From Nitrososphaeria archaeon (GTDB taxonomy: Archaea; Thermoproteota; Nitrososphaeria; JACIWG01): a DNA stretch of 64,000 nt. Positions 45,782 to 64,000 of the stretch are shown piece by piece (the first letter of the stretch is position 1; the number at the start of each line of letters is the position of its first letter). The DNA is taken from contig JBMFNX010000004.1 in NCBI GenBank assembly GCA_049969935.1, positions 2,366 to 66,365 of the forward strand. Direction: 5' to 3'. Made by a program: the position numbers and the translations under genes. Below the pieces are notes generated by a model, which searched no databases, was not told the DNA's origin, and saw only the letters and a program-made list of their open reading frames with translations.

Positions 45782-47239
45782 TTAACGTTTTAATGGAACA
45801 GAAAATGCTTCCTCAATCTTCTGCCTATGGATTGTGTTCATGCTACAGAAGGGTATTATTCTACCATCTGGGACAGCATAGTGTATGCTGCATCTTTCAA
45901 CCCTTTCAAGGTCAAAATTGTATGGGTCCATGAAATGCATGTCACCGACCATAACAATTTTTCTCATAAACTTTCCTAGAGAATGATATGAGCCGTTAGA
46001 GAGGAAGGCGCTTACAAGAGATGAAAGTGTACCTAGACTCAAATGTCTTAATGCTGAGGCAGCCTTAATCTTACCCAAAGTCTTCTTACCCGAGGACATG
46101 GTTTCAGCTGCACTTGACAGGGCTTCAACAAACTTTTCAACATTAGCATGCCTTGTTATTGGCTCATAATCATTCTTTTCCCTGTCGACAACAAGAAATG
46201 TTGCAGCACCACAGTTTTGGTGACAGGTAAAGGTGGGCTGAGGAGCGCCTTTAAGTTCTGCTATGAAGTCGGAAATTGGTGCAACAAATGGGATCGGATA
46301 CCAGTCCTCCATCCTAATCTTTCCATTAGTTTGCTTTTCAGCATTATTTATTACATCGGAGGTCGTTATCCTATATTCTAGAAGCTTAGAGGTGTCGATT
46401 CTGCCTGCAAATGAAACTGGCTGAAAGTTTACACATCTAACAACATCACTGTTTCTTACACCAAATTCTATCAGGGCACCTACTTCCCCGTCATTTATAC
46501 CCTTAACCACGGTTGGAACAAGTACAAGGCTTTCGTGGCCTAGAAACCTTAAATTTTCTACAGCCTTAAGCTTAATATCAAGCAGGTCAGCACCCTTCAT
46601 TTTAATATATGCTTCCCTTGTTAGACTATCAAATGATAGATAGAAGGTGCTTACACCCGCGTCAATAAGTTCCTTCAAATAGTCTATGTCCCTTGCTATT
46701 CTAACACCGTTGGTGTTAACTTCAACATGGTGTATTCCAATCTTTTTAGCGTATCTGACGATTTCAGGCAAATCGTCTCTTAAAGTTGGTTCTCCACCAC
46801 TCAACTGTACAGCGTACGTGGGCACAGGCCTATTATTTCGAAGATTATCTAGCATCTGCTTAACCTGATCCAGTGAAGGCTGATATAGGTAGCCTACAGC
46901 TGCTGCGTTTGCAAAACAAATGGGGCAACGAAGATTGCATGCGTTTGTCACGTCAACTATACCTAATATTGTATGAGACTTGTGTTCATTACATATTCCG
47001 CAGTCGAATGGGCAGCCTATTGACCTTTTTGTTCTAGGATTTTCTATACCATCGCCAACCCGCTCATACTGTTGAACACGCTTATACCATCTGTAGTCGG
47101 ACATGTAAATGTCCCTGAACTCTCCATGCTCTTCACATGATTTCCTCATGTAGACGACATTATCTTCAACATAAAGTTCTGCCTTAATCACTTTAAAGCA
47201 CACGGGGCAAAGGCTTCTTGTGAACTTAATATGCTCCAA
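45782..47239 (-). CDS. Radical SAM protein, COG1964 family (Tes/GDGT-MAS-like tetraether lipid synthase candidate)
   Basis: N-terminal CPVC...C..HG rubredoxin-like motif, GCPFDCGIC, radical SAM CNLRCPIC, SGGEPT; 485 aa. Confidence 0.5.
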   Translation of the reverse strand: MEHIKFTRSLCPVCFKVIKAELYVEDNVVYMRKSCEEHGEFRDIYMSDYRWYKRVQQYERVGDGIENPRTKRSIGCPFDCGICNEHKSHTILGIVDVTNACNLRCPICFANAAAVGYLYQPSLDQVKQMLDNLRNNRPVPTYAVQLSGGEPTLRDDLPEIVRYAKKIGIHHVEVNTNGVRIARDIDYLKELIDAGVSTFYLSFDSLTREAYIKMKGADLLDIKLKAVENLRFLGHESLVLVPTVVKGINDGEVGALIEFGVRNSDVVRCVNFQPVSFAGRIDTSKLLEYRITTSDVINNAEKQTNGKIRMEDWYPIPFVAPISDFIAELKGAPQPTFTCHQNCGAATFLVVDREKNDYEPITRHANVEKFVEALSSAAETMSSGKKTLGKIKAASALRHLSLGTLSSLVSAFLSNGSYHSLGKFMRKIVMVGDMHFMDPYNFDLERVERCSIHYAVPDGRIIPFCSMNTIHRQKIEEAFSVPLKR

Positions 47240-47339: not shown

Positions 47340-48080
47340 TTACCACGTCATATTTTTAATTTCTCTTGCAGAGGCCCTAACATTATTTGATTCTATAATT
47401 GCTCTAGCCACAATAAGATAGTCTGAGCCAGCTCGTACAGCCTCTCTAGGATCACCACCTTGAACAAAAATGCCTGGAGAGAATATTGGAATATCTTTAA
47501 CCCTAGCCCTCACATATTTTATGATAGAAGGGTTTGTGGCGCCAACAATCAGGCCGTCCACATTCCATTCTACAGCCCTTTCTATAAACAGGTCATACAT
47601 TTTAACGGAAACACCGCCCTTTAGAACATCAAGCCCATATCCTTCAACAGCACCCTTATGGCTCATATACGTTAAAGTTATTATGCCCCTGTCTTTGGAA
47701 TGCGCTTCCTGAATGCATGGGCCTAAACCTTCCTCGAAACCGACAAATGGATTACATATTACGGCATCAAATCCTATGTCCCACAAAATTTTTGTTGCAA
47801 CAACGTTGGTTGCTGAAATATCATTCAGTTTCAAGTCCGCTATAGCCTGAAGGTTATGAGCATGCGCTTTGCCTACAATTTCTTTTAACTCATTAAAGCC
47901 CAAGGGTATAATAAGGTGAAGATTCACTTTAATACCGCATACTTCATCACATACTTCGTCTAGAATCTTCAACGCCTTTGACATGAGATTTTCAGGAAGA
48001 TCTGGTTTTAGGTCTAAGCCTAAAACGATTCTACTCCTTTTCTCTAAACTAGAGTTTCTCATCCTTTCAGAAAAGGCCAT
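47340..48080 (-). CDS. pyrF: Orotidine 5'-phosphate decarboxylase
   Basis: IVLGLDL, DLKLNDISATN (DxKxxDIxxT), LIVARAI; 246 aa. Confidence 0.7.
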   Translation of the reverse strand: MAFSERMRNSSLEKRSRIVLGLDLKPDLPENLMSKALKILDEVCDEVCGIKVNLHLIIPLGFNELKEIVGKAHAHNLQAIADLKLNDISATNVVATKILWDIGFDAVICNPFVGFEEGLGPCIQEAHSKDRGIITLTYMSHKGAVEGYGLDVLKGGVSVKMYDLFIERAVEWNVDGLIVGATNPSIIKYVRARVKDIPIFSPGIFVQGGDPREAVRAGSDYLIVARAIIESNNVRASAREIKNMTW

Positions 48081-48814
48081 ATGTTACCCTTTTCAGGTAA
48101 ATGCTTCACCTTTATAATCTTTGCATACACAAAACCTGATTCATCAACATTGTTGGTGTATTCTAGCAGATTCTTTTCTGAAGAATATTTTATAAAATTT
48201 TTGTTGATAGTGTCTGTTATAACATAATATACTTTTGCTGGAAAACCTTCCCCGTAACTCAATATTGTAAACAGCATACTCACACCATGGCTGTTAACAT
48301 AGAATAGTGGTAAAATGGATTCTTCATAAAACATTTTATATGTTGCAACCCTTACGAGGCTACCTACATCCGCAAGCTCTACAAAAGAATTCTTTTTAAA
48401 TGGAAAAGTTTTACTCCTAAACCAGTTTCTAGGAGGATTTTTCAGAAATATTATTGGAGCATAAATGTATGACGCATTATGCACTGTAGTGAAAAAGTCA
48501 ACGGATTCCACACCATACACATTCTTGTATCCAAGATAGTTTCCAACCTTCTCTGAAACCACAAACATGTAGTCAACCCTTTTCACGTCAACCTGATATT
48601 GGATGAAAAGTGTCCAAAATCCATTGTTCCTGAAAGCGAATACAGGCTGTGGAACATGCTCGAATGAGCATACTAGTCTCGCAAAATCCTGTATTGATGA
48701 TAGTTCGAAGGCCATAATCTTGACATCAGCCTTAACAAGAGCATGATAAAAAATTTTAAACATAGCTAATGTAATGTGCAGAGCATGCAACGTGAACAGA
48801 AAATTCTGGAGCAC
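48059..48814 (-). CDS. Hypothetical protein (aromatic-rich, no recognisable domain)
   Basis: 251-aa ORF, 22-nt overlap with pyrF; true start may be internal. Confidence 0.3.
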   Translation of the reverse strand: MLQNFLFTLHALHITLAMFKIFYHALVKADVKIMAFELSSIQDFARLVCSFEHVPQPVFAFRNNGFWTLFIQYQVDVKRVDYMFVVSEKVGNYLGYKNVYGVESVDFFTTVHNASYIYAPIIFLKNPPRNWFRSKTFPFKKNSFVELADVGSLVRVATYKMFYEESILPLFYVNSHGVSMLFTILSYGEGFPAKVYYVITDTINKNFIKYSSEKNLLEYTNNVDESGFVYAKIIKVKHLPEKGNIWPFLKG

Positions 48815-49192
48815 ATAAATGCTTCCTTAGAGGCTATCGGGAAACTGGAAAAGAATATGATTTCAAGAAATTCGGTAATAGAATTCGATGAACTTGCATG
48901 GGAAGCTTACAGAAACTGTGAGGCAGCAATATTTCTTCTAAAAATTGAAATGAGGTCAGTGGATGAATTCGATGATTCGAAACTCGTATTTGACCAAGAT
49001 TATCCAGACTATAATATTTTTGTGGCAGAAGAACATATTAGAAACGCATTAACACATATTGAAAAGAGGAGTCTAAGAGAGGCTTTAAATGAGCTTAGAA
49101 TTGCAAGAAACATTTTGGCAGAACTTTTTGTCAGGTCAAGAAAAGAGAAAATTGATAGGATTAAAGCAAGTTTTAAGCAGAAAAAGTTTTAA
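48776..49192 (+). CDS. Hypothetical helical protein
   Basis: 138-aa ORF, Glu/Leu/Arg-rich; divergent from 48059-48814 with overlapping 5' ends. Confidence 0.3.
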   Translation: MQSMQREQKILEHINASLEAIGKLEKNMISRNSVIEFDELAWEAYRNCEAAIFLLKIEMRSVDEFDDSKLVFDQDYPDYNIFVAEEHIRNALTHIEKRSLREALNELRIARNILAELFVRSRKEKIDRIKASFKQKKF

Positions 49193-49256: not shown

Positions 49257-50468
49257 TTGGATAGAATGTTTTGGATTGCAAAGGAAGAGGAAATAAAGAA
49301 GGCTGAAACAACAGACGTCTACTTCTCTTACACGAAAAAGGTTCTAGAAAAATATGGACTGCATAAGAAGGTTATAATGGAAGTTTATGCAAGAAACCTG
49401 CCCTTCGAGGGAAACTGGGGTGTACTTTTAGGAGTACACGACTGTATAAAGCTCCTTGAAGGCTTACCCTTTAAAGTTAAAAGTATGTGCGAGGGGGAAA
49501 TATTTCAAGTTAATCCGAATTCGGTAGTATATGAGCCTGTAATGCAGATAGAATGCTATTACGACGACTTTTGCCTATACGAAAACCCACTACTTGGACT
49601 GCTCGCAGAAAACACTGGTATAGCTTCAAAGGCTGCAAGATACAGGCTTATTGCAGGAAAAAAGATACTTTTCAGCTTCGGTTCCAGAAGAATACATCCA
49701 GTCCTAGCGCCTGCCTCAGAAAGGGCAATATATATTGCGGGATTCGATGGCGTTTCAAACATTCTAGCAGCAAAACTTATTGGCATAAAACCAGTCGGTA
49801 CAATGCCACATGCCCTGATACAGGTATTCGGGGACCAGAAAGAGGCATGGAAGGCTTTCGATTCAACATTATCTGAGGATGTTCCAAGAATAGCCTTGAT
49901 AGACACATTCTATGATGAAAAGGCTGAAGCGATAATGGCTTTAGAAACGTTAGGAGAAAAACTTGCTGGAGTAAGACTGGATACACCACGTTCAAGAAGA
50001 GGGGAATGGAGGAAGATTATTGAGGAAGTTAGATGGGAACTGAATGTTAGAGGTGGAAAGAATGTTAAAATATTTGTTAGTGGAAGCATAGATGAGAAGC
50101 TTATTCAGGAACTTAGTGATATAGTTGACGGCTTCGGAGTAGGCGCTTCAGTAAGTGCAGCGCCACCAGTAGATTTTAGTGCAAAGATTGTCGCAATTGA
50201 AGTCGATGGCAAAATGAAGCCTGTTGCAAAAAGAGGGGACATTGGTGGTGCGAAAAGCGTTTACAGAGACTGGAATTCGTTCACAGACTATGTTACGCTG
50301 AAAGAGAGTAAGCCGCCTTCAGAAAAGTTCACTCCACTACTTGAGGACGTGATAGTTGATGGAGAGGTTGTTAAAGAGTTAGAAGACACTAGGAGGATAA
50401 GGGAAAAGGTTTTACAAAAAATTTCTATATTAAGAAGCGTGCAGCCAAAGATAGTTTATTCAGTCTAA
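49257..50468 (+). CDS. Nicotinate phosphoribosyltransferase family protein
   Basis: PRTase type II fold motifs incl. GTMPHA, SGSID; 403 aa. Confidence 0.6.
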   Translation: MDRMFWIAKEEEIKKAETTDVYFSYTKKVLEKYGLHKKVIMEVYARNLPFEGNWGVLLGVHDCIKLLEGLPFKVKSMCEGEIFQVNPNSVVYEPVMQIECYYDDFCLYENPLLGLLAENTGIASKAARYRLIAGKKILFSFGSRRIHPVLAPASERAIYIAGFDGVSNILAAKLIGIKPVGTMPHALIQVFGDQKEAWKAFDSTLSEDVPRIALIDTFYDEKAEAIMALETLGEKLAGVRLDTPRSRRGEWRKIIEEVRWELNVRGGKNVKIFVSGSIDEKLIQELSDIVDGFGVGASVSAAPPVDFSAKIVAIEVDGKMKPVAKRGDIGGAKSVYRDWNSFTDYVTLKESKPPSEKFTPLLEDVIVDGEVVKELEDTRRIREKVLQKISILRSVQPKIVYSV

Positions 50469-50498
50469 AAATTTAAATCAAAATTTAGTGAGAAAAGT

Positions 50499-51053
50499 AT
50501 GGTTCCAGAAAATGTGGGAAAAAGATATTTTGAGACGTCTCTAATAATAGTTTTTGGATCACTTTATGCTGTCACAGGATACTTTACCTTTTTTGGAATA
50601 AACTTTTATGGAGTAAGATTTTGGCCAGCGGTTGTAGTGCCTGCAGTAGCTGCGGTACTGTTTGGTGAAAAGGTTGGAGGCTGTTCAGCGGCTCTTGGAA
50701 TACTTGTTTCAGACATTCTAGCACATGGCATGCTTTTCTTAAGTCTAACGGTTGGTGTGCCATCAAATTTTATCGCATTCTATATTATAGGAAAGGTTTG
50801 CAGAAGATATAGTCTAAAAAGGTACATGATTTCGGCAACAATAGGGTTGGCTGTTGGTTCAATAGTAATTGGTTTAGGATTATTTTTGTGGAGTCAAGCG
50901 TTCCCACTACCATTTAACAGTCAAATTACACCATTAGCCTTTGAGGCAATATTCTCCATATCAGCCTGGACCTTTATTTCAGAAATACCATTCTTATATA
51001 TTCTTGTGCCACCATTGGTTAGGATGATAAAGGGTAGAGTGGGGAAAGTTTGA
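50499..51053 (+). CDS. ECF-transporter S-component-like membrane protein (possible pantothenate/vitamin uptake)
   Basis: 184 aa, 5-6 TM helices, Gly/Ala-rich helix (PAVAAVLFGEKVGG) typical of S components; 4-nt overlap with downstream PanK gene. Confidence 0.45.
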   Translation: MVPENVGKRYFETSLIIVFGSLYAVTGYFTFFGINFYGVRFWPAVVVPAVAAVLFGEKVGGCSAALGILVSDILAHGMLFLSLTVGVPSNFIAFYIIGKVCRRYSLKRYMISATIGLAVGSIVIGLGLFLWSQAFPLPFNSQITPLAFEAIFSISAWTFISEIPFLYILVPPLVRMIKGRVGKV

Positions 51054-51883
51054 TGCTCATAGCCGGCTTAGATATTGGTGGAAGTGTTACAAAGGGGGTT
51101 CTAGTTGATAATGAAAAAATTATAGCATACTCTGAAGTTCAAGCTTCTGATTCGATAACGTCAGCATTAGGGTGTCTGGGAAGACTTTTAGCTGACACAG
51201 GAATGAGGATAAGAGATCTGCGCAAGGTTGCGCTCACAGGCTCTATAACAAGGAGACTAAAGTTGGATATGATTGAAATAGATTATAGGATTGTTGATGA
51301 GATAGAGGCTATAGGCTTAGGTGGACTCTATCTTTCAGGAAAAAATGAGGCAATAGTTGTTAGTGTTGGAACTGGAACAGCCATAGTATACGCTAGAAAG
51401 TATGGGAAAGAGTATAGTGTAGAACATTTAGGTGGGACAGGAGTTGGTGGAGGAACAATAGCAGGATTGGGAAAACTTCTTCTCAAAAAAGATTATCCTT
51501 CAAACATTTTCAAGGAAGCTTTAGGAGGAGACCTTTCTAGAGTAAACTTGCAGGTTAGGGATATAGTGGGTGGACCGATAGGGAGAATTCCAGCTGAAGC
51601 AACAGCATCAAATTTTGGTAAAGTCGGGGACGAGACTAGATCTGAGGACATTGCTTTAGGGCTGATTACAATGATAGCTGAAGTGATTGCAACTATAGCA
51701 TACTTTGCCGCTAAACAAAAGAGTTTAGAGGAAAATATAATATTTGTGGGAAAGCTACCGTCCCAGGAAATATTTTCGAAAAGGCTTTTGGACACCTTGA
51801 ATGTATTAGGTGGAAAGGCGGTTATACCAAAAAATGCTGAGTATGCGACAGCAATAGGAGCGGCTAAGGCTTTAAAAGTATAG
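51050..51883 (+). CDS. Type II (fumble/eukaryotic-type) pantothenate kinase
   Basis: Collinear with Staphylococcus-type CoaA: GLDIGGSVTKGV, VSVGTGTAIVY, HLGGTGVGGGTIAGLG, ATASNFGKV, EYATAIGAA; 277 aa. Confidence 0.65.
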   Translation: MMLIAGLDIGGSVTKGVLVDNEKIIAYSEVQASDSITSALGCLGRLLADTGMRIRDLRKVALTGSITRRLKLDMIEIDYRIVDEIEAIGLGGLYLSGKNEAIVVSVGTGTAIVYARKYGKEYSVEHLGGTGVGGGTIAGLGKLLLKKDYPSNIFKEALGGDLSRVNLQVRDIVGGPIGRIPAEATASNFGKVGDETRSEDIALGLITMIAEVIATIAYFAAKQKSLEENIIFVGKLPSQEIFSKRLLDTLNVLGGKAVIPKNAEYATAIGAAKALKV

Positions 51884-52588
51884 CTAATGAACTATCGTCT
51901 GCTTATATTTTTCTATACTATCATAGACTATGTTTCCCACAACAATGGTAGCATACTTGCTCATAATTTCAGCCTTTTCTCTACCATCTATTCCCCCACC
52001 ATAGAATAGGTGAGAGTAGCACAGATTTTCTTTAACAGCCTTAACAACGTTTGGGTCACCAAAACGGCCACTATATTCTATGTAAACGATTGGAGCATGC
52101 ATGATTCTATCAGCGTAAACTGCATGCGACAGAATCTGTTCCAACGACAAGTCAGTAATACTTTTTGTTAACCTTGCTACAGCACAATCTGGATTTAATA
52201 TAATATAGGCTTCTATAACAATCTTATCCCATGGAATGTTTTTAAAGTCTCCAAAAACATTTTTCATACTATTAATCCAGGCAACATGGGCGCCGCCAGA
52301 CCACCATTTCTCGTTAGTGTTCAATATTAGTGGCACAAAAAAGTAGTCGAAAGAGAAGTCTACAGCATCGGACTTTGAAGGCTCAAGTAGAATAGGAATA
52401 TTTGCACCCTCAAGCATCCTTTTCAGCCTTCTAACCTTATCTAAAGTAATACCCTGTGTACCTCCCACAAGTATAGCGTCAGTACCGTTTTCAAGCACTG
52501 CCTTAACTATTTCTCGAGTATTATTTTTATCTGGGTCAAGTTTTGTAACATGCTTCCACCTTCTCCAAGGACATTCAAGCGACAACAT
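51884..52588 (-). CDS. Geranylgeranylglyceryl phosphate synthase (PcrB family)
   Basis: WKHVTKLDPDK, ILVGGTQG, YGGGI; 234 aa. Confidence 0.8.
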   Translation of the reverse strand: MLSLECPWRRWKHVTKLDPDKNNTREIVKAVLENGTDAILVGGTQGITLDKVRRLKRMLEGANIPILLEPSKSDAVDFSFDYFFVPLILNTNEKWWSGGAHVAWINSMKNVFGDFKNIPWDKIVIEAYIILNPDCAVARLTKSITDLSLEQILSHAVYADRIMHAPIVYIEYSGRFGDPNVVKAVKENLCYSHLFYGGGIDGREKAEIMSKYATIVVGNIVYDSIEKYKQTIVH

Positions 52589-54132: not shown

Positions 54133-54939
54133 TTGAATAGTATAGTACAGTATAGGAGGATAAAATGTAAGAGTGCTGTTTCCAAAAGTACACTACCGGG
54201 ACTAGATTATACTATAAACCCATACCTTGGCTGCGAACATGGATGCATATACTGTTATGTGCCAGATGTATTGAGAAGTAAAGAGTTTCAGAATGGTTGG
54301 GGGACAATAGTTTATGCAAAAGAGAATATTGTTGAAGCGCTATTAAAGCAAGTTAGGGCAATAAGGCCTGGAGTTATTGGATACAGTACTGTTACAGACC
54401 CCTATCAGCCATATGAGAAAAGGATGTGTTTTGCTAGAAAGATAATAGAAACACTATTAAGCTACAGGTTTAGAATTTCATTTCAAACAAAGTCTTCGTT
54501 AATTTTAAGAGACATAGACGTAATAGGGGGAGATAATGTGGAAGTAGGCTTTACAATAACATCATTGGATAAAGAGTTTACAAAAAAATTTGAGCCAAAC
54601 TCTTCACTTCCAGAAGAAAGGGTCCAGGCTCTTGAAACATTTTCTGAAAAGGGGGTTAAAACTTGGATATTTTATGGCCCAATCATATGCGGATTCAACG
54701 ACAGCGATGAAAATATACATGATCTCGTTAATTTAGCCAAAAAAACTAGAAGCCACATATTGTATGATAAGATAAGGCTTAAACCTATACTTTCTAAGAG
54801 AATGGAAAAAGTTTTAGGTGAAAAAGTTTTCGAAGAAATTAAAAGGGGAGATTTAGAAAAGCATTTTAGGAAAGCATATTATAAGGTTATAAAATTGGGT
54901 AAAGAATATGGTGTGAAGGTTGAGCCAGCTTTCACGTGA
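54133..54939 (+). CDS. SPL/SplB-like radical SAM DNA-repair-photolyase family protein (COG1533)
   Basis: INPYLGCEHGCIYCYV radical SAM motif in the SPL-family context; 268 aa. Confidence 0.6.
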   Translation: MNSIVQYRRIKCKSAVSKSTLPGLDYTINPYLGCEHGCIYCYVPDVLRSKEFQNGWGTIVYAKENIVEALLKQVRAIRPGVIGYSTVTDPYQPYEKRMCFARKIIETLLSYRFRISFQTKSSLILRDIDVIGGDNVEVGFTITSLDKEFTKKFEPNSSLPEERVQALETFSEKGVKTWIFYGPIICGFNDSDENIHDLVNLAKKTRSHILYDKIRLKPILSKRMEKVLGEKVFEEIKRGDLEKHFRKAYYKVIKLGKEYGVKVEPAFT

Positions 54940-55436
54940 GAGTGTTTGGTTTGAGTGGAAAGTCTGAAAAGTATAGGGTTGTTGTCATAGGACCTCTGAT
55001 TTTAGCTATACTACCACAGCTGCTAATACATTACTTGGATAAAAGGAACCTAGCCTTTTCCCTCACAAGAGATAATGTTATGGGATTTTTGGGAACACTT
55101 TTTGTTGGAATATGGATAGGGTTAAGCATAATTTTTACAAAATATCTTTGGATCTTTTCATACATAATATTCTTTATTCTAATAGGCGCATATGGAATGC
55201 TAATAATCTTTAACACGTATGTTGAGGGAATAGTTTTTATTAGGAAAAAATGTAATAGTTGCAAGTTTAGGAACCTTATAATAGACCATGAGCGAATACA
55301 TTTGGGCTCAAATGTTTCAGAGGAGAAGGTGTGGGAGATGTTGAAAAAAGTTTATACGGCGCAAGAGTTTGACGTCTACGAGAATGGTACAATATGTGAC
55401 TACTGTCCAATACCAGCACATTTGATAGAAGAGTAA
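54936..55436 (+). CDS. Small membrane protein with C-terminal Cys4 zinc-ribbon-like motif
   Basis: Three hydrophobic helices then CNSC...CDYCP; GTG start overlapping upstream gene, true start may be internal. Confidence 0.35.
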   Translation: MRVFGLSGKSEKYRVVVIGPLILAILPQLLIHYLDKRNLAFSLTRDNVMGFLGTLFVGIWIGLSIIFTKYLWIFSYIIFFILIGAYGMLIIFNTYVEGIVFIRKKCNSCKFRNLIIDHERIHLGSNVSEEKVWEMLKKVYTAQEFDVYENGTICDYCPIPAHLIEE

Positions 55437-62835: not shown

Positions 62836-63387
62836 CTAAGACTTTTCAAGCATCTTTTCAAAAGTCCAGGTTATAAGATTCAATATTTCCTTAAGCCTAC
62901 TTTTAGTCCTATAATTTTCTATAGTAATCTTTTTTATAACACCCTCAGAATCTTCTTCAACAGAAAATTTTAGAACCTCATCATCCTTTAGCATGCCACT
63001 CTTAACCTGAGCCCTATCAACTTCAACCATCTGTGGAAGCTTTTTACCCATCAAATATGATGTGAAAGGTGGAGTGGAACTCTTCAACTTTATAGATGAT
63101 GCTGGAACAACGATAACATTCTTTGACGAAATGTATGCTGTAGCAATAATCCTGCCATCCTTAGCCTTTAAAGGCGTAACCTCCTCACCCACAACCTCCT
63201 TAGCCTCCTCCTTCACTTCAGCAACTTGCTTGATTTCTTCAGCAGGCCGAAACCCCTTCTGTAGAAGGAAACTGTCTATAACTGCCAGAGTTTCACGTAA
63301 TGCTTCAATCTCCCTTTCAAGAGACTTTATCCTCTCTTCAATCCAAAGCTTTGTTTCAGCAACCTTCTTAATTTCATCCTCACTCAA
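62836..63387 (-). CDS. Hypothetical protein (N-terminal coiled coil, C-terminal beta-rich domain)
   Basis: 183-aa ORF, no recognisable catalytic motif. Confidence 0.3.
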   Translation of the reverse strand: MSEDEIKKVAETKLWIEERIKSLEREIEALRETLAVIDSFLLQKGFRPAEEIKQVAEVKEEAKEVVGEEVTPLKAKDGRIIATAYISSKNVIVVPASSIKLKSSTPPFTSYLMGKKLPQMVEVDRAQVKSGMLKDDEVLKFSVEEDSEGVIKKITIENYRTKSRLKEILNLITWTFEKMLEKS

Positions 63388-63412: not shown

Positions 63413-64000
63413 CTATGTATATAACGTTTTTTGTTCAAGAAAAAATTTTTGACCAAAATACTTTTCCAACGCAATTAGAATAAGGAAGGAAACTAATGTC
63501 GAAACCGTACGCTCATAGAGCATAAGGGGAAAGCTTATTACAAGAAAACTAGCGTTAATGTTCAAAAGAAAAATGGCTAACATTGTTCCAGTAGCATGCT
63601 GAAAAAATGTAGATGAGAACGTGTTCAAAAGAATCCTAAACTTTCCTCTAACAATATAGTATAAAAGAGATGAAATAGAAGCAATCGTATGAGGTATTAT
63701 GAACCACCAGACTTCACTATAGTAGTATATGAGAAAAGCTGAAAATAGTAGAAGGTAAAGGAAGACGATATAGGATAACCGCCTACGATTTAAGCCTGAC
63801 GCTAACGCACCAGCCATCGGCACAATTGGAGTAAGAAAACCGAAAAAAGAAGTTGGATTAAAGAAGAGGTAAGCCAGTGCACCAATAAGCATAGAAAAGG
63901 GACCATATATGGGGCCGAGAAGATATCCTGCTACTGGAGGAATAGCTAGGGACAGGGAAAATGAGCCTTGTCCGCCAACCAAGCCTGTGCCTACAGGTAT
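63413..64000 (-). CDS. Multi-TM membrane protein, ECF-S-component-like; N-terminus probably beyond window edge
   Basis: Reading frame stays open to position 64000; Gly/Pro-rich first helix (PPVAGYLLGPIYGPF) similar in style to 50499-51053. Confidence 0.4.
   Translation of the reverse strand: MPVGTGLVGGQGSFSLSLAIPPVAGYLLGPIYGPFSMLIGALAYLFFNPTSFFGFLTPIVPMAGALASGLNRRRLSYIVFLYLLLFSAFLIYYYSEVWWFIIPHTIASISSLLYYIVRGKFRILLNTFSSTFFQHATGTMLAIFLLNINASFLVISFPLMLYERTVSTLVSFLILIALEKYFGQKFFLEQKTLYT

Follow-up and report, generated by a model that had tools for sequence, protein, structure and literature searches.

What would a type II pantothenate kinase (PanK) of the eukaryote/Staphylococcus kind do in an archaeon, with its gene directly behind that of a small membrane protein? 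The question is raised by a gene pair at positions 50499-51883 of a 64,000-nucleotide (64-kb) stretch of contig JBMFNX010000004.1 from a Nitrososphaeria archaeon, the whole of which is referred to here as the window. Archaeal coenzyme A (CoA) synthesis is considered solved for lineages with a pantoate kinase (PoK) plus a phosphopantothenate synthetase (PPS). The PoK/PPS route is used by most archaea, as the initial annotation of this locus also held, and Korarchaeota and Bathyarchaeota are among the archaea listed as lacking it (PMC6650551). For these and the others listed without both enzymes there is no named replacement and no known system for precursor uptake. The two genes are most probably a CoA-precursor salvage cassette consisting of an S-type carrier and a divergent type II PanK, with pantothenate the most likely substrate here, a reading to which we give a probability of about 0.6. 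The novelty lies in the carrier family and its systematic coupling to two kinases, and comes with a well-supported functional prediction, the annotation of the kinase itself being already known. Both open reading frames (ORFs) that had been proposed for the pair, at 50499-51053 and 51053-51883, are present:

50499..51053, + strand: 184-aa six-helix membrane protein with the S-component fold of transporters of the energy-coupling factor (ECF) type, from an apparently archaea-restricted family (PF12822, AlphaFold2 model, Foldseek)
51050..51055, + strand: gene junction TTGATG (direct sequence reading)
51053..51883, + strand: 276-aa ASKHA kinase of the type II pantothenate kinase (Fumble) family, His125/Ala110 subfamily (NF009842, PF03630, fold)

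The membrane protein is predicted to transport a CoA precursor with a pantoyl group, and the kinase to phosphorylate the imported compound. At their junction the stop codon of the membrane gene (TGA, 51051-51053) meets two possible kinase starts, TTG 51050 and ATG 51053. Because homologues begin with MLIAGLD, MLVAGLD or MIVAGLD in the alignment, ATG 51053 is the likely start, which gives an overlap of 1 nt; the 4-nt overlap given originally applies only if TTG 51050 is used. As read from the DNA, this arrangement would imply translational coupling of the two genes.

The resemblance of the membrane protein to ECF S components, first proposed from its sequence, is borne out by both profile and fold, neither of which points to an unrelated membrane protein. 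It matches the Pfam family ECF_trnsprt (PF12822) with 34.8 bits, above the threshold of 30.7, and scores just below threshold on ECF-ribofla_trS (25.3 bits; threshold 26.7), and no NCBIfam model matched. The AlphaFold2 model (pLDDT 92.6) contains six membrane helices, and its top 27 Foldseek matches in the PDB are all S components (ThiT, HmpT, PanT, RibU, BioY, FolT and NikM), with probabilities of 0.69-1.00 (at least 0.84 for 26 of the 27), identities of 10-18% and TM-scores of 0.40-0.67, mostly 0.5-0.67 and in the range 0.40-0.44 for two of the 27 chains. PanT (6zg3_C), at rank 4 and 15% identical, resembles the carrier no more closely than ThiT or HmpT do, and comparison with PDB sequences at E-values up to 10, using either the single sequence or a 38-sequence profile, gave no match, the PanT chains included. 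Helix 1 of the window protein holds the motif G20-S-L-Y-A24, in which position 20 is Ala or Gly in 73 of 75 aligned family members and A24 is kept in 65 of 75. An AxxxA-type motif in helix 1, a typical feature of S components, is known from ThiT to serve their docking on EcfT. The invariant polar residues embedded in the membrane are Y23, R/K40, W42, D72, H76, S82, N90, T158 and E162. Roughly half of the family, in Bathyarchaeia, Thermofilaceae and Desulfurococcaceae, carries an insertion of ~55-60 residues between helices 4 and 5 (columns 125-190 of alignment A1), which probably forms two extra membrane helices.

A word-indexed search of 5.8 billion non-redundant proteins returned 277 relatives of the carrier, and the organism names among the matches listed are all archaeal. 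With each GTDB species represented by one genome, at least 254 archaeal genomes encode a member of the family, which, judged by these sequence matches, appears to be restricted to archaea in the genomes found. Most members have no database name, and the rest are called "hypothetical protein" or "uncharacterized membrane protein", with a few from Bathyarchaeota named "ECF transporter S component". The literature searched holds no description of the family or of its coupling to PanK or PoK, an older comparative-genomic mention remaining possible, and no S component linked to a pantoate kinase. A second candidate carrier in the window, a 189-aa hydrophobic ORF at its edge (63413-63982, - strand) that has no Pfam or NCBIfam match, was rejected as unrelated to the first (hhalign probability 0.8%).

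For the kinase, the profiles and the structural model place the protein, at family level, among the type II PanK/Fumble proteins, which is distinct from a demonstrated equivalog of the characterized enzymes. The Fumble profile search that the initial annotation had recommended gives 77.7 bits on PF03630 (gathering threshold 28.5), covering residues 102-242 only, while the NCBIfam model NF009842, "type II pantothenate kinase", scores 203 bits and aligns residues 1-274 of the protein with positions 1-271 of the 277-position profile. A search of PDB sequences ranks S. aureus PanK-II best (E=1.4e-16), with human PANK1-3 and yeast Cab1 next in line. An AlphaFold2 model derived from 36 archaeal homologues (pLDDT 87.8, with low confidence only in the loop at 170-190) finds exclusively S. 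aureus, yeast or human type II PanKs at Foldseek ranks 1-41 in the PDB, with E-values down to 2.8e-19 and TM-scores of 0.70-0.80; for the S. aureus enzyme the TM-score is 0.76 at 26-27% identity. All of the motifs quoted at the outset are found in the protein: D7-I-G-G, G106-T-G-T109, G127-G-T-G-V-G-G-G-T135, A185-S-N-F-G189 and A267-I-G-A-A271. E83 aligns with the catalytic Glu of the family, E70 in S. aureus and E138 in human PANK3, and is present in 150 of 152 sequences from a set spanning the 150 closest 50%-identity clusters. D7, G106-T-G-T109 and G127-G-T-G-x-G-G-G-T135 are invariant or nearly so, and neither the 36 archaeal homologues nor the 150 cluster representatives show more than marginal variation in the catalytic Glu, in the motifs for phosphate and adenosine or in the TAxNFG loop.

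Homologues of this kinase from Korarchaeota, Bathyarchaeia and Nitrososphaeria already bear the database names "pantothenate kinase" or "type II pantothenate kinase", those from Korarchaeota being numerous in a protein database search, and one marine member is annotated as KEGG K09680. Since public annotation already names such proteins, a type II PanK homologue in an archaeon is no discovery in itself. No paper on an archaeal type II PanK or on coaW in archaea was found in the literature searched.

The link between the two proteins comes from gene order around the carrier family. In the best 80 carrier loci of the 254 genomes, which derive from Nitrososphaeria, Korarchaeia, Methanodesulfokora, Bathyarchaeia, Thermofilaceae, Desulfurococcaceae, Odinarchaeia and Borrarchaeum, the next gene downstream on the same strand encodes a type II PanK-like kinase in ~36 loci, with junctions of at most 20 nt or overlapping in 32 of 35, and a GHMP kinase nearest pantoate kinase in ~35 loci, with such junctions in 31 of 34. 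The GHMP kinases score 113-179 bits on pantoate kinase models versus 33-47 bits for the next family. A CoA-pathway kinase therefore follows the carrier gene in ~71 of the 80 loci, and the two genes overlap or lie within 20 nt of each other in 63 of the 69 junctions measured. The pairing is far beyond chance, and the carrier family is tied to the first phosphorylation step of CoA synthesis.

Several of these loci extend the association to further steps of uptake and synthesis. One operon (L026:2161-4493) has the order S component, PoK, PPS, the last gene identified by PF02006 (247 bits) and NF010324 (351 bits, above cut-off), and is a complete unit with pantoate in and 4'-phosphopantothenate out. 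Two metagenome-assembled genomes of Desulfurococcaceae (L050:1961-5275 and L052:5396-8654) contain S-PoK-EcfA-EcfT operons, in which EcfA scores 177-184 bits on TIGR04521 and EcfT, of the CbiQ family, scores 70.7 bits on PF02361, above threshold; these carry a single A gene rather than two. The search for EcfA and EcfT that had been suggested thus places an ECF module next to the carrier in two related genomes, and in none of the remaining 78 of the 80 loci is one adjacent. Phosphopantetheine adenylyltransferase (PPAT) follows in the order S-PoK-PPAT in 13 Bathyarchaeia loci and in the order S-PanK-PPAT in L045 and L086. A gene for a DUF763 protein (PF05559, ~380 aa) lies after S-PoK-PPAT in several Bathyarchaeia loci (L053, L055, L061, L062, L064, L076 and L079), ~1.5-3 kb downstream of the carrier. 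In ~14 Korarchaeia loci (e.g., L008:11383-12792), genes for a Nudix protein and a nicotinamide mononucleotide adenylyltransferase (NMNAT) are found downstream of the carrier-kinase pair, and the presence of such nicotinamide adenine dinucleotide (NAD) genes may reflect a cofactor-salvage supercluster.

The kinase also occurs apart from the carrier, and there too it is often accompanied by a transporter. In other archaeal contigs a gene for an OPT-family transporter (PF03169, 535-572 aa) precedes the same PanK-like kinase, directly upstream in several cases (L083:2366-3973, L084:2233-3951 and L082:1616-3223; also L092, L094, L096, L101, L110, L140 and L146). With OPT in the place of the S gene, this looks like a non-orthologous replacement of the uptake partner. 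In a metagenome sample, 68 kinase loci had enough flanking sequence; in 21 of them the carrier lies no more than 500 nt away and in 7 an OPT gene no more than 1.3 kb away, and the remaining loci are mostly of bacterial context. The archaeal kinase is thus habitually paired with an uptake protein. A CoaBC (DFP) gene lies near a Nanoarchaeota homologue of the kinase, and this neighbor and the OPT-kinase contigs provide independent support for the logic of a transporter plus a kinase.

Taken together, the data point to salvage of a CoA precursor. An S component of the ECF type would capture a pantoyl-containing precursor outside the cell, most likely pantothenate, and carry it across the membrane. 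The kinase, presumably encoded on the same message and translationally coupled, would use ATP and the conserved catalytic Glu83 to phosphorylate the 4'-hydroxyl, and the product, 4'-phosphopantothenate, would keep the vitamin trapped in the cell and feed it to CoaBC, PPAT and DPCK (dephospho-CoA kinase). Pantothenate, pantoate and pantetheine are the candidate substrates of the kinase. Pantothenate is the most economical choice because the kinase family is that of the pantothenate kinases, because no PPS gene turns up within 10 kb at any PanK-linked locus (36 in all) while one PoK-linked locus has it adjacent, and because Korarchaeota, rich in the kinase, are reported to be without PoK/PPS (PMC6650551). 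With the PPS from the S-PoK-PPS operon as query, the matches listed (at least 120) are all 65-100% identical, those with names coming from Bathyarchaeota/Bathyarchaeia, a saturated listing that is uninformative rather than negative on PPS in kinase-bearing genomes. A shared EcfAA'T module could plausibly energize the transport in this genome, as such modules are encoded behind the carrier in two genomes.

A number of observations weigh against this reading, the first of which concern the substrate site of the kinase. In PANK3, three side chains form hydrogen bonds to pantothenate, among them Arg207 and Ser195 (PMC8366970). When a PANK3 fragment, verified against the PDB sequence (245/245 identical), was aligned to the archaeal profile by hhalign, H125 came to lie opposite human R207 and A110 opposite S195; S. 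aureus, like the human enzyme, has an Arg (R113) at the R207 position. His is found at position 125 in 143 of the 152 sequences and Arg in three, and the equivalents of PANK3 Tyr254 and Tyr258 are not conserved in the archaeal family, while the TAxNFG loop, which contacts pantothenate via main-chain atoms, is conserved. The inactivity of human PANK4 goes with the loss of Arg and Glu together. A type II homologue from B. anthracis has been reported to be inactive (PMC8366970). The kinase also falls below the NCBIfam equivalog cut-offs, with NF009842 at 203 against 234 bits and the eukaryote-type model TIGR00555 at 104.8 against 247.6 bits, and the His state is common to many homologues in bacterial contexts without a transporter or CoA link. 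No biochemical work on any member of the family was found in the literature searched. At the level of the locus, EcfA, EcfT, CoaBC and PPAT are all absent from the window, in which tblastn also finds no PoK, PPS or PPAT, and a contig with the same downstream synteny of geranylgeranylglyceryl phosphate (GGGP) synthase, Nre and radical SAM genes (L090:1-6031) has the kinase (69% identical) without an adjacent carrier. Finally, carriers linked to PanK do not differ from those linked to PoK in their conserved polar residues, and a similarity dendrogram intermixes the two groups, so that the carrier may take one substrate in both settings.

Judged by its distribution, His125 is the normal state of a large subfamily rather than a lesion, and the assignment as a type II PanK of the eukaryote/Staphylococcus kind holds for the family, by profile and fold, and does not extend to a clean equivalog in view of the cut-offs, His125 and Ala110. 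The change from Arg to His marks a large, uncharacterized branch of the Fumble family. The idea that the His type is specific to archaea was rejected, as homologues in bacterial contexts carry His too. Distant PanK-II-like homologues with 38-44% identity (many among L114-L169) occur in bacterial contexts beside genes such as those for D-Ala-D-Ala ligase, sigma-70, SpoIIP and SepF; they mostly have His at the Arg207 position, and Tyr in 9 of 52.

The closest competitor retains CoA-precursor salvage and changes only the substrate of the kinase, either to pantoate, in which case the enzyme would replace the GHMP-type PoK with PPS encoded elsewhere, or to pantetheine, which would pass to PPAT and bypass CoaBC. 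This version, unlikely on the whole yet deserving of attention, would account for the invariant His125 and Ala110 at the positions of two pantothenate ligands, and it draws on the coupling of the same carrier family to PoK in half of the loci. With the carriers alike and their partner kinases intermixed in the carrier dendrogram, the kinases are suggested to be interchangeable on one imported compound. A comparison of PanK-linked and PoK-linked carriers found no specificity-determining residues, the sole differing column being V/I at position 46. Either the carrier recognizes the pantoyl part that pantoate and pantothenate share, or the true substrate of one of the kinases is not the one suggested by its name. 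Of the module for pantothenate uptake and phosphorylation that had been proposed, salvage is strongly backed by the conserved CoA gene order, and pantothenate as the transported substrate is not established because the same carrier family pairs equally often with a pantoate kinase. The S-PanK-PPAT order in two loci fits pantetheine salvage, but PPAT also follows PoK, so that its linkage is generic to the pathway. Against both substrates stand the distribution of PPS, which is missing near the PanK-linked loci and adjacent at one PoK-linked locus, the report of kinase-bearing Korarchaeota without PPS (PMC6650551), and the conservation of the loop that contacts pantothenate.

A broader proposal would make the carriers a new S-fold class of pantoate/pantothenate transporters, mostly without a dedicated ECF ATPase, and at the same time make the His125/Ala110 kinases a separate specificity class; both holding jointly is doubtful. 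Uptake free of an ECF module would be pulled by the coupled kinase through metabolic trapping of the Pnu type. A separate specificity class might be, e.g., a kinase of the ASKHA fold for pantoate or pantetheine that takes the place of the GHMP pantoate kinase, and would explain the alternation of two unrelated kinases behind one unchanged carrier.

The preferred reading, salvage of a CoA precursor with pantothenate as the most likely substrate, also has to be set against the surroundings of the gene pair, which include a gene of NAD salvage:

49257..50468, + strand: nicotinate phosphoribosyltransferase (NAPRT; NAD salvage), the upstream neighbor (NF006415, 475.6 bits; cut-off 243)
50469..50498, + strand: AT-rich 30-nt spacer after the NAPRT stop codon (direct sequence reading)
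51884..52588, - strand: geranylgeranylglyceryl phosphate synthase, convergent and abutting the kinase stop codon (PF01884, 204 bits; NF003199, 267 bits)

The membrane protein could accordingly be a niacin-type S component (NiaX-like) that serves NAD salvage together with NAPRT, with the adjacency of the kinase incidental. A gap of 30 nt separates the carrier gene from NAPRT, which precedes it on the same strand, in the window and likewise in its six closest relatives, the Nudix and NMNAT genes follow the S-PanK pair in Korarchaeia, and NAPRT and the carrier are missing together from the contig that has the kinase alone, where two unrelated ORFs take the upstream position. The NAPRT neighbor is kept only in the six closest Nitrososphaeria loci (L001-L006), however, a single shallow clade that makes up 6 of the 80 loci, whereas the CoA kinase follows the carrier, usually overlapping or nearly touching it, across Nitrososphaeria, Korarchaeia, Bathyarchaeia, Thermofilaceae, Desulfurococcaceae and Asgard archaea, and no NAD gene is present in the S-PoK-PPS or S-PoK-EcfA-EcfT operons. 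A role in niacin uptake is a minor rival that we consider very unlikely, since the kinase linkage, by its breadth and tightness, outweighs it.

Least probable of all, and barely credible, is that the kinase is another ASKHA member (an acyl-CoA dehydratase/benzoyl-CoA reductase activase or a sugar kinase) and the membrane protein an unrelated small one or an S-fold sensor, for although BcrAD_BadFG (PF01869) reaches 31.4 bits (threshold 31.5) and the dehydratase activase model TIGR00241, the next unrelated model after NF009842, reaches 48.8 bits (cut-off 125.4), one distant homologue adjoins galactokinase and glycogen phosphorylase, and the S fold also occurs in sensor kinases (PMC11109136), both activase profiles remain below threshold, the PanK models score four times higher over the full length, the dehydratase activase 4EHT first appears at Foldseek rank 42 behind the PanKs, the only cysteine of the kinase (C41) is not conserved and so leaves no cluster-bridging Cys pair as in activases, and two genomes encode EcfA and EcfT directly behind the carrier and the kinase. 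The CoA-enzyme activase that the initial annotation had itself named as the competing identity is thus not what the profiles find.

The window is archaeal. Genes near the pair encode GGGP synthase, Nre, ABCE1/RLI, a thermosome subunit and geranylgeranyl reductase, and the closest public relative is a contig from a hot-spring "Nitrososphaeria archaeon" metagenome-assembled genome (L001), whose encoded proteins are 96-98% identical across the locus by tblastn. The GGGP synthase gene marks the 3' end of the two-gene unit. At its 5' end, the spacer contains a TATA-like TTTAAAT at 50472-50478, ~24 nt ahead of the ATG of the membrane gene, and the unit may have its own promoter upstream of 50499 and a leaderless transcript; AT-rich boxes are present upstream in L001-L006 with poor conservation, and the promoter reading rests on one TATA-like box. 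Elsewhere in the window, a 485-aa radical SAM protein with an N-terminal HMPTM-type zinc ribbon (PF23545) is encoded at 45782-47239 (- strand), and four ORFs have no Pfam family: 48059-48814 (- strand), 48776-49192 (+ strand), 54936-55436 (+ strand) and 62836-63387 (- strand). The first two of these (clusters c15 and c16) keep their place beside NAPRT in the six relatives closest to the window. Scanning the window with Rfam and for tRNAs returned nothing relevant.

For archaea listed as lacking both PoK and PPS, the carrier-kinase pair provides a concrete, testable candidate for the uptake and phosphorylation of CoA precursors. It would show which uncultured TACK, Asgard and DPANN archaea rely on the vitamin B5 or pantoate of their neighbors, a dependence relevant to cultivation media and to cross-feeding models. 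With two unrelated kinases alternating behind one carrier, the family also represents a clean natural experiment in non-orthologous gene displacement.

Compared with known systems, the kinase shares the ASKHA fold of the type II PanKs (CoaW/PanK-II; S. aureus 2EWS/4M7X, human PANK1-3 and yeast Cab1), is similar in length to the S. aureus enzyme, of which the solved chains have 265-287 residues, and keeps the DxGG, GTGT and GGxGxGGG nucleotide motifs, the catalytic Glu and the TAxNFG loop. It differs from these enzymes in having an invariant His for the substrate-positioning Arg and Ala for Ser195, and in being encoded behind a transporter gene. The carrier has the six-helix S fold of the ECF S components (ThiT, RibU, BioY, FolT, HmpT and PanT), a match to PF12822, a small-xxx-small motif in helix 1 and, in two related genomes, adjacent EcfA and EcfT; what sets it apart is that no similarity in sequence to any of the solved S components could be detected, not even to PanT, and that a kinase, in place of an ECF module, is the partner that defines it. 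With the archaeal PoK/PPS route (T. kodakarensis TK2141/TK1686) the proposed scheme has in common the product 4'-phosphopantothenate, and genes of the same carrier family stand before PoK-like genes in ~35 loci, in one of which PPS comes directly after, whereas the kinase of the window is of the ASKHA rather than the GHMP type. In Pnu-type systems (e.g., PnuC-NadR), a small vitamin carrier and a phosphorylating kinase are encoded in an operon, and uptake proceeds by metabolic trapping. The gene pair described here resembles these systems in its carrier-kinase operon and in the metabolic trapping that is proposed for it, and departs from them in the unrelated fold of its carrier.

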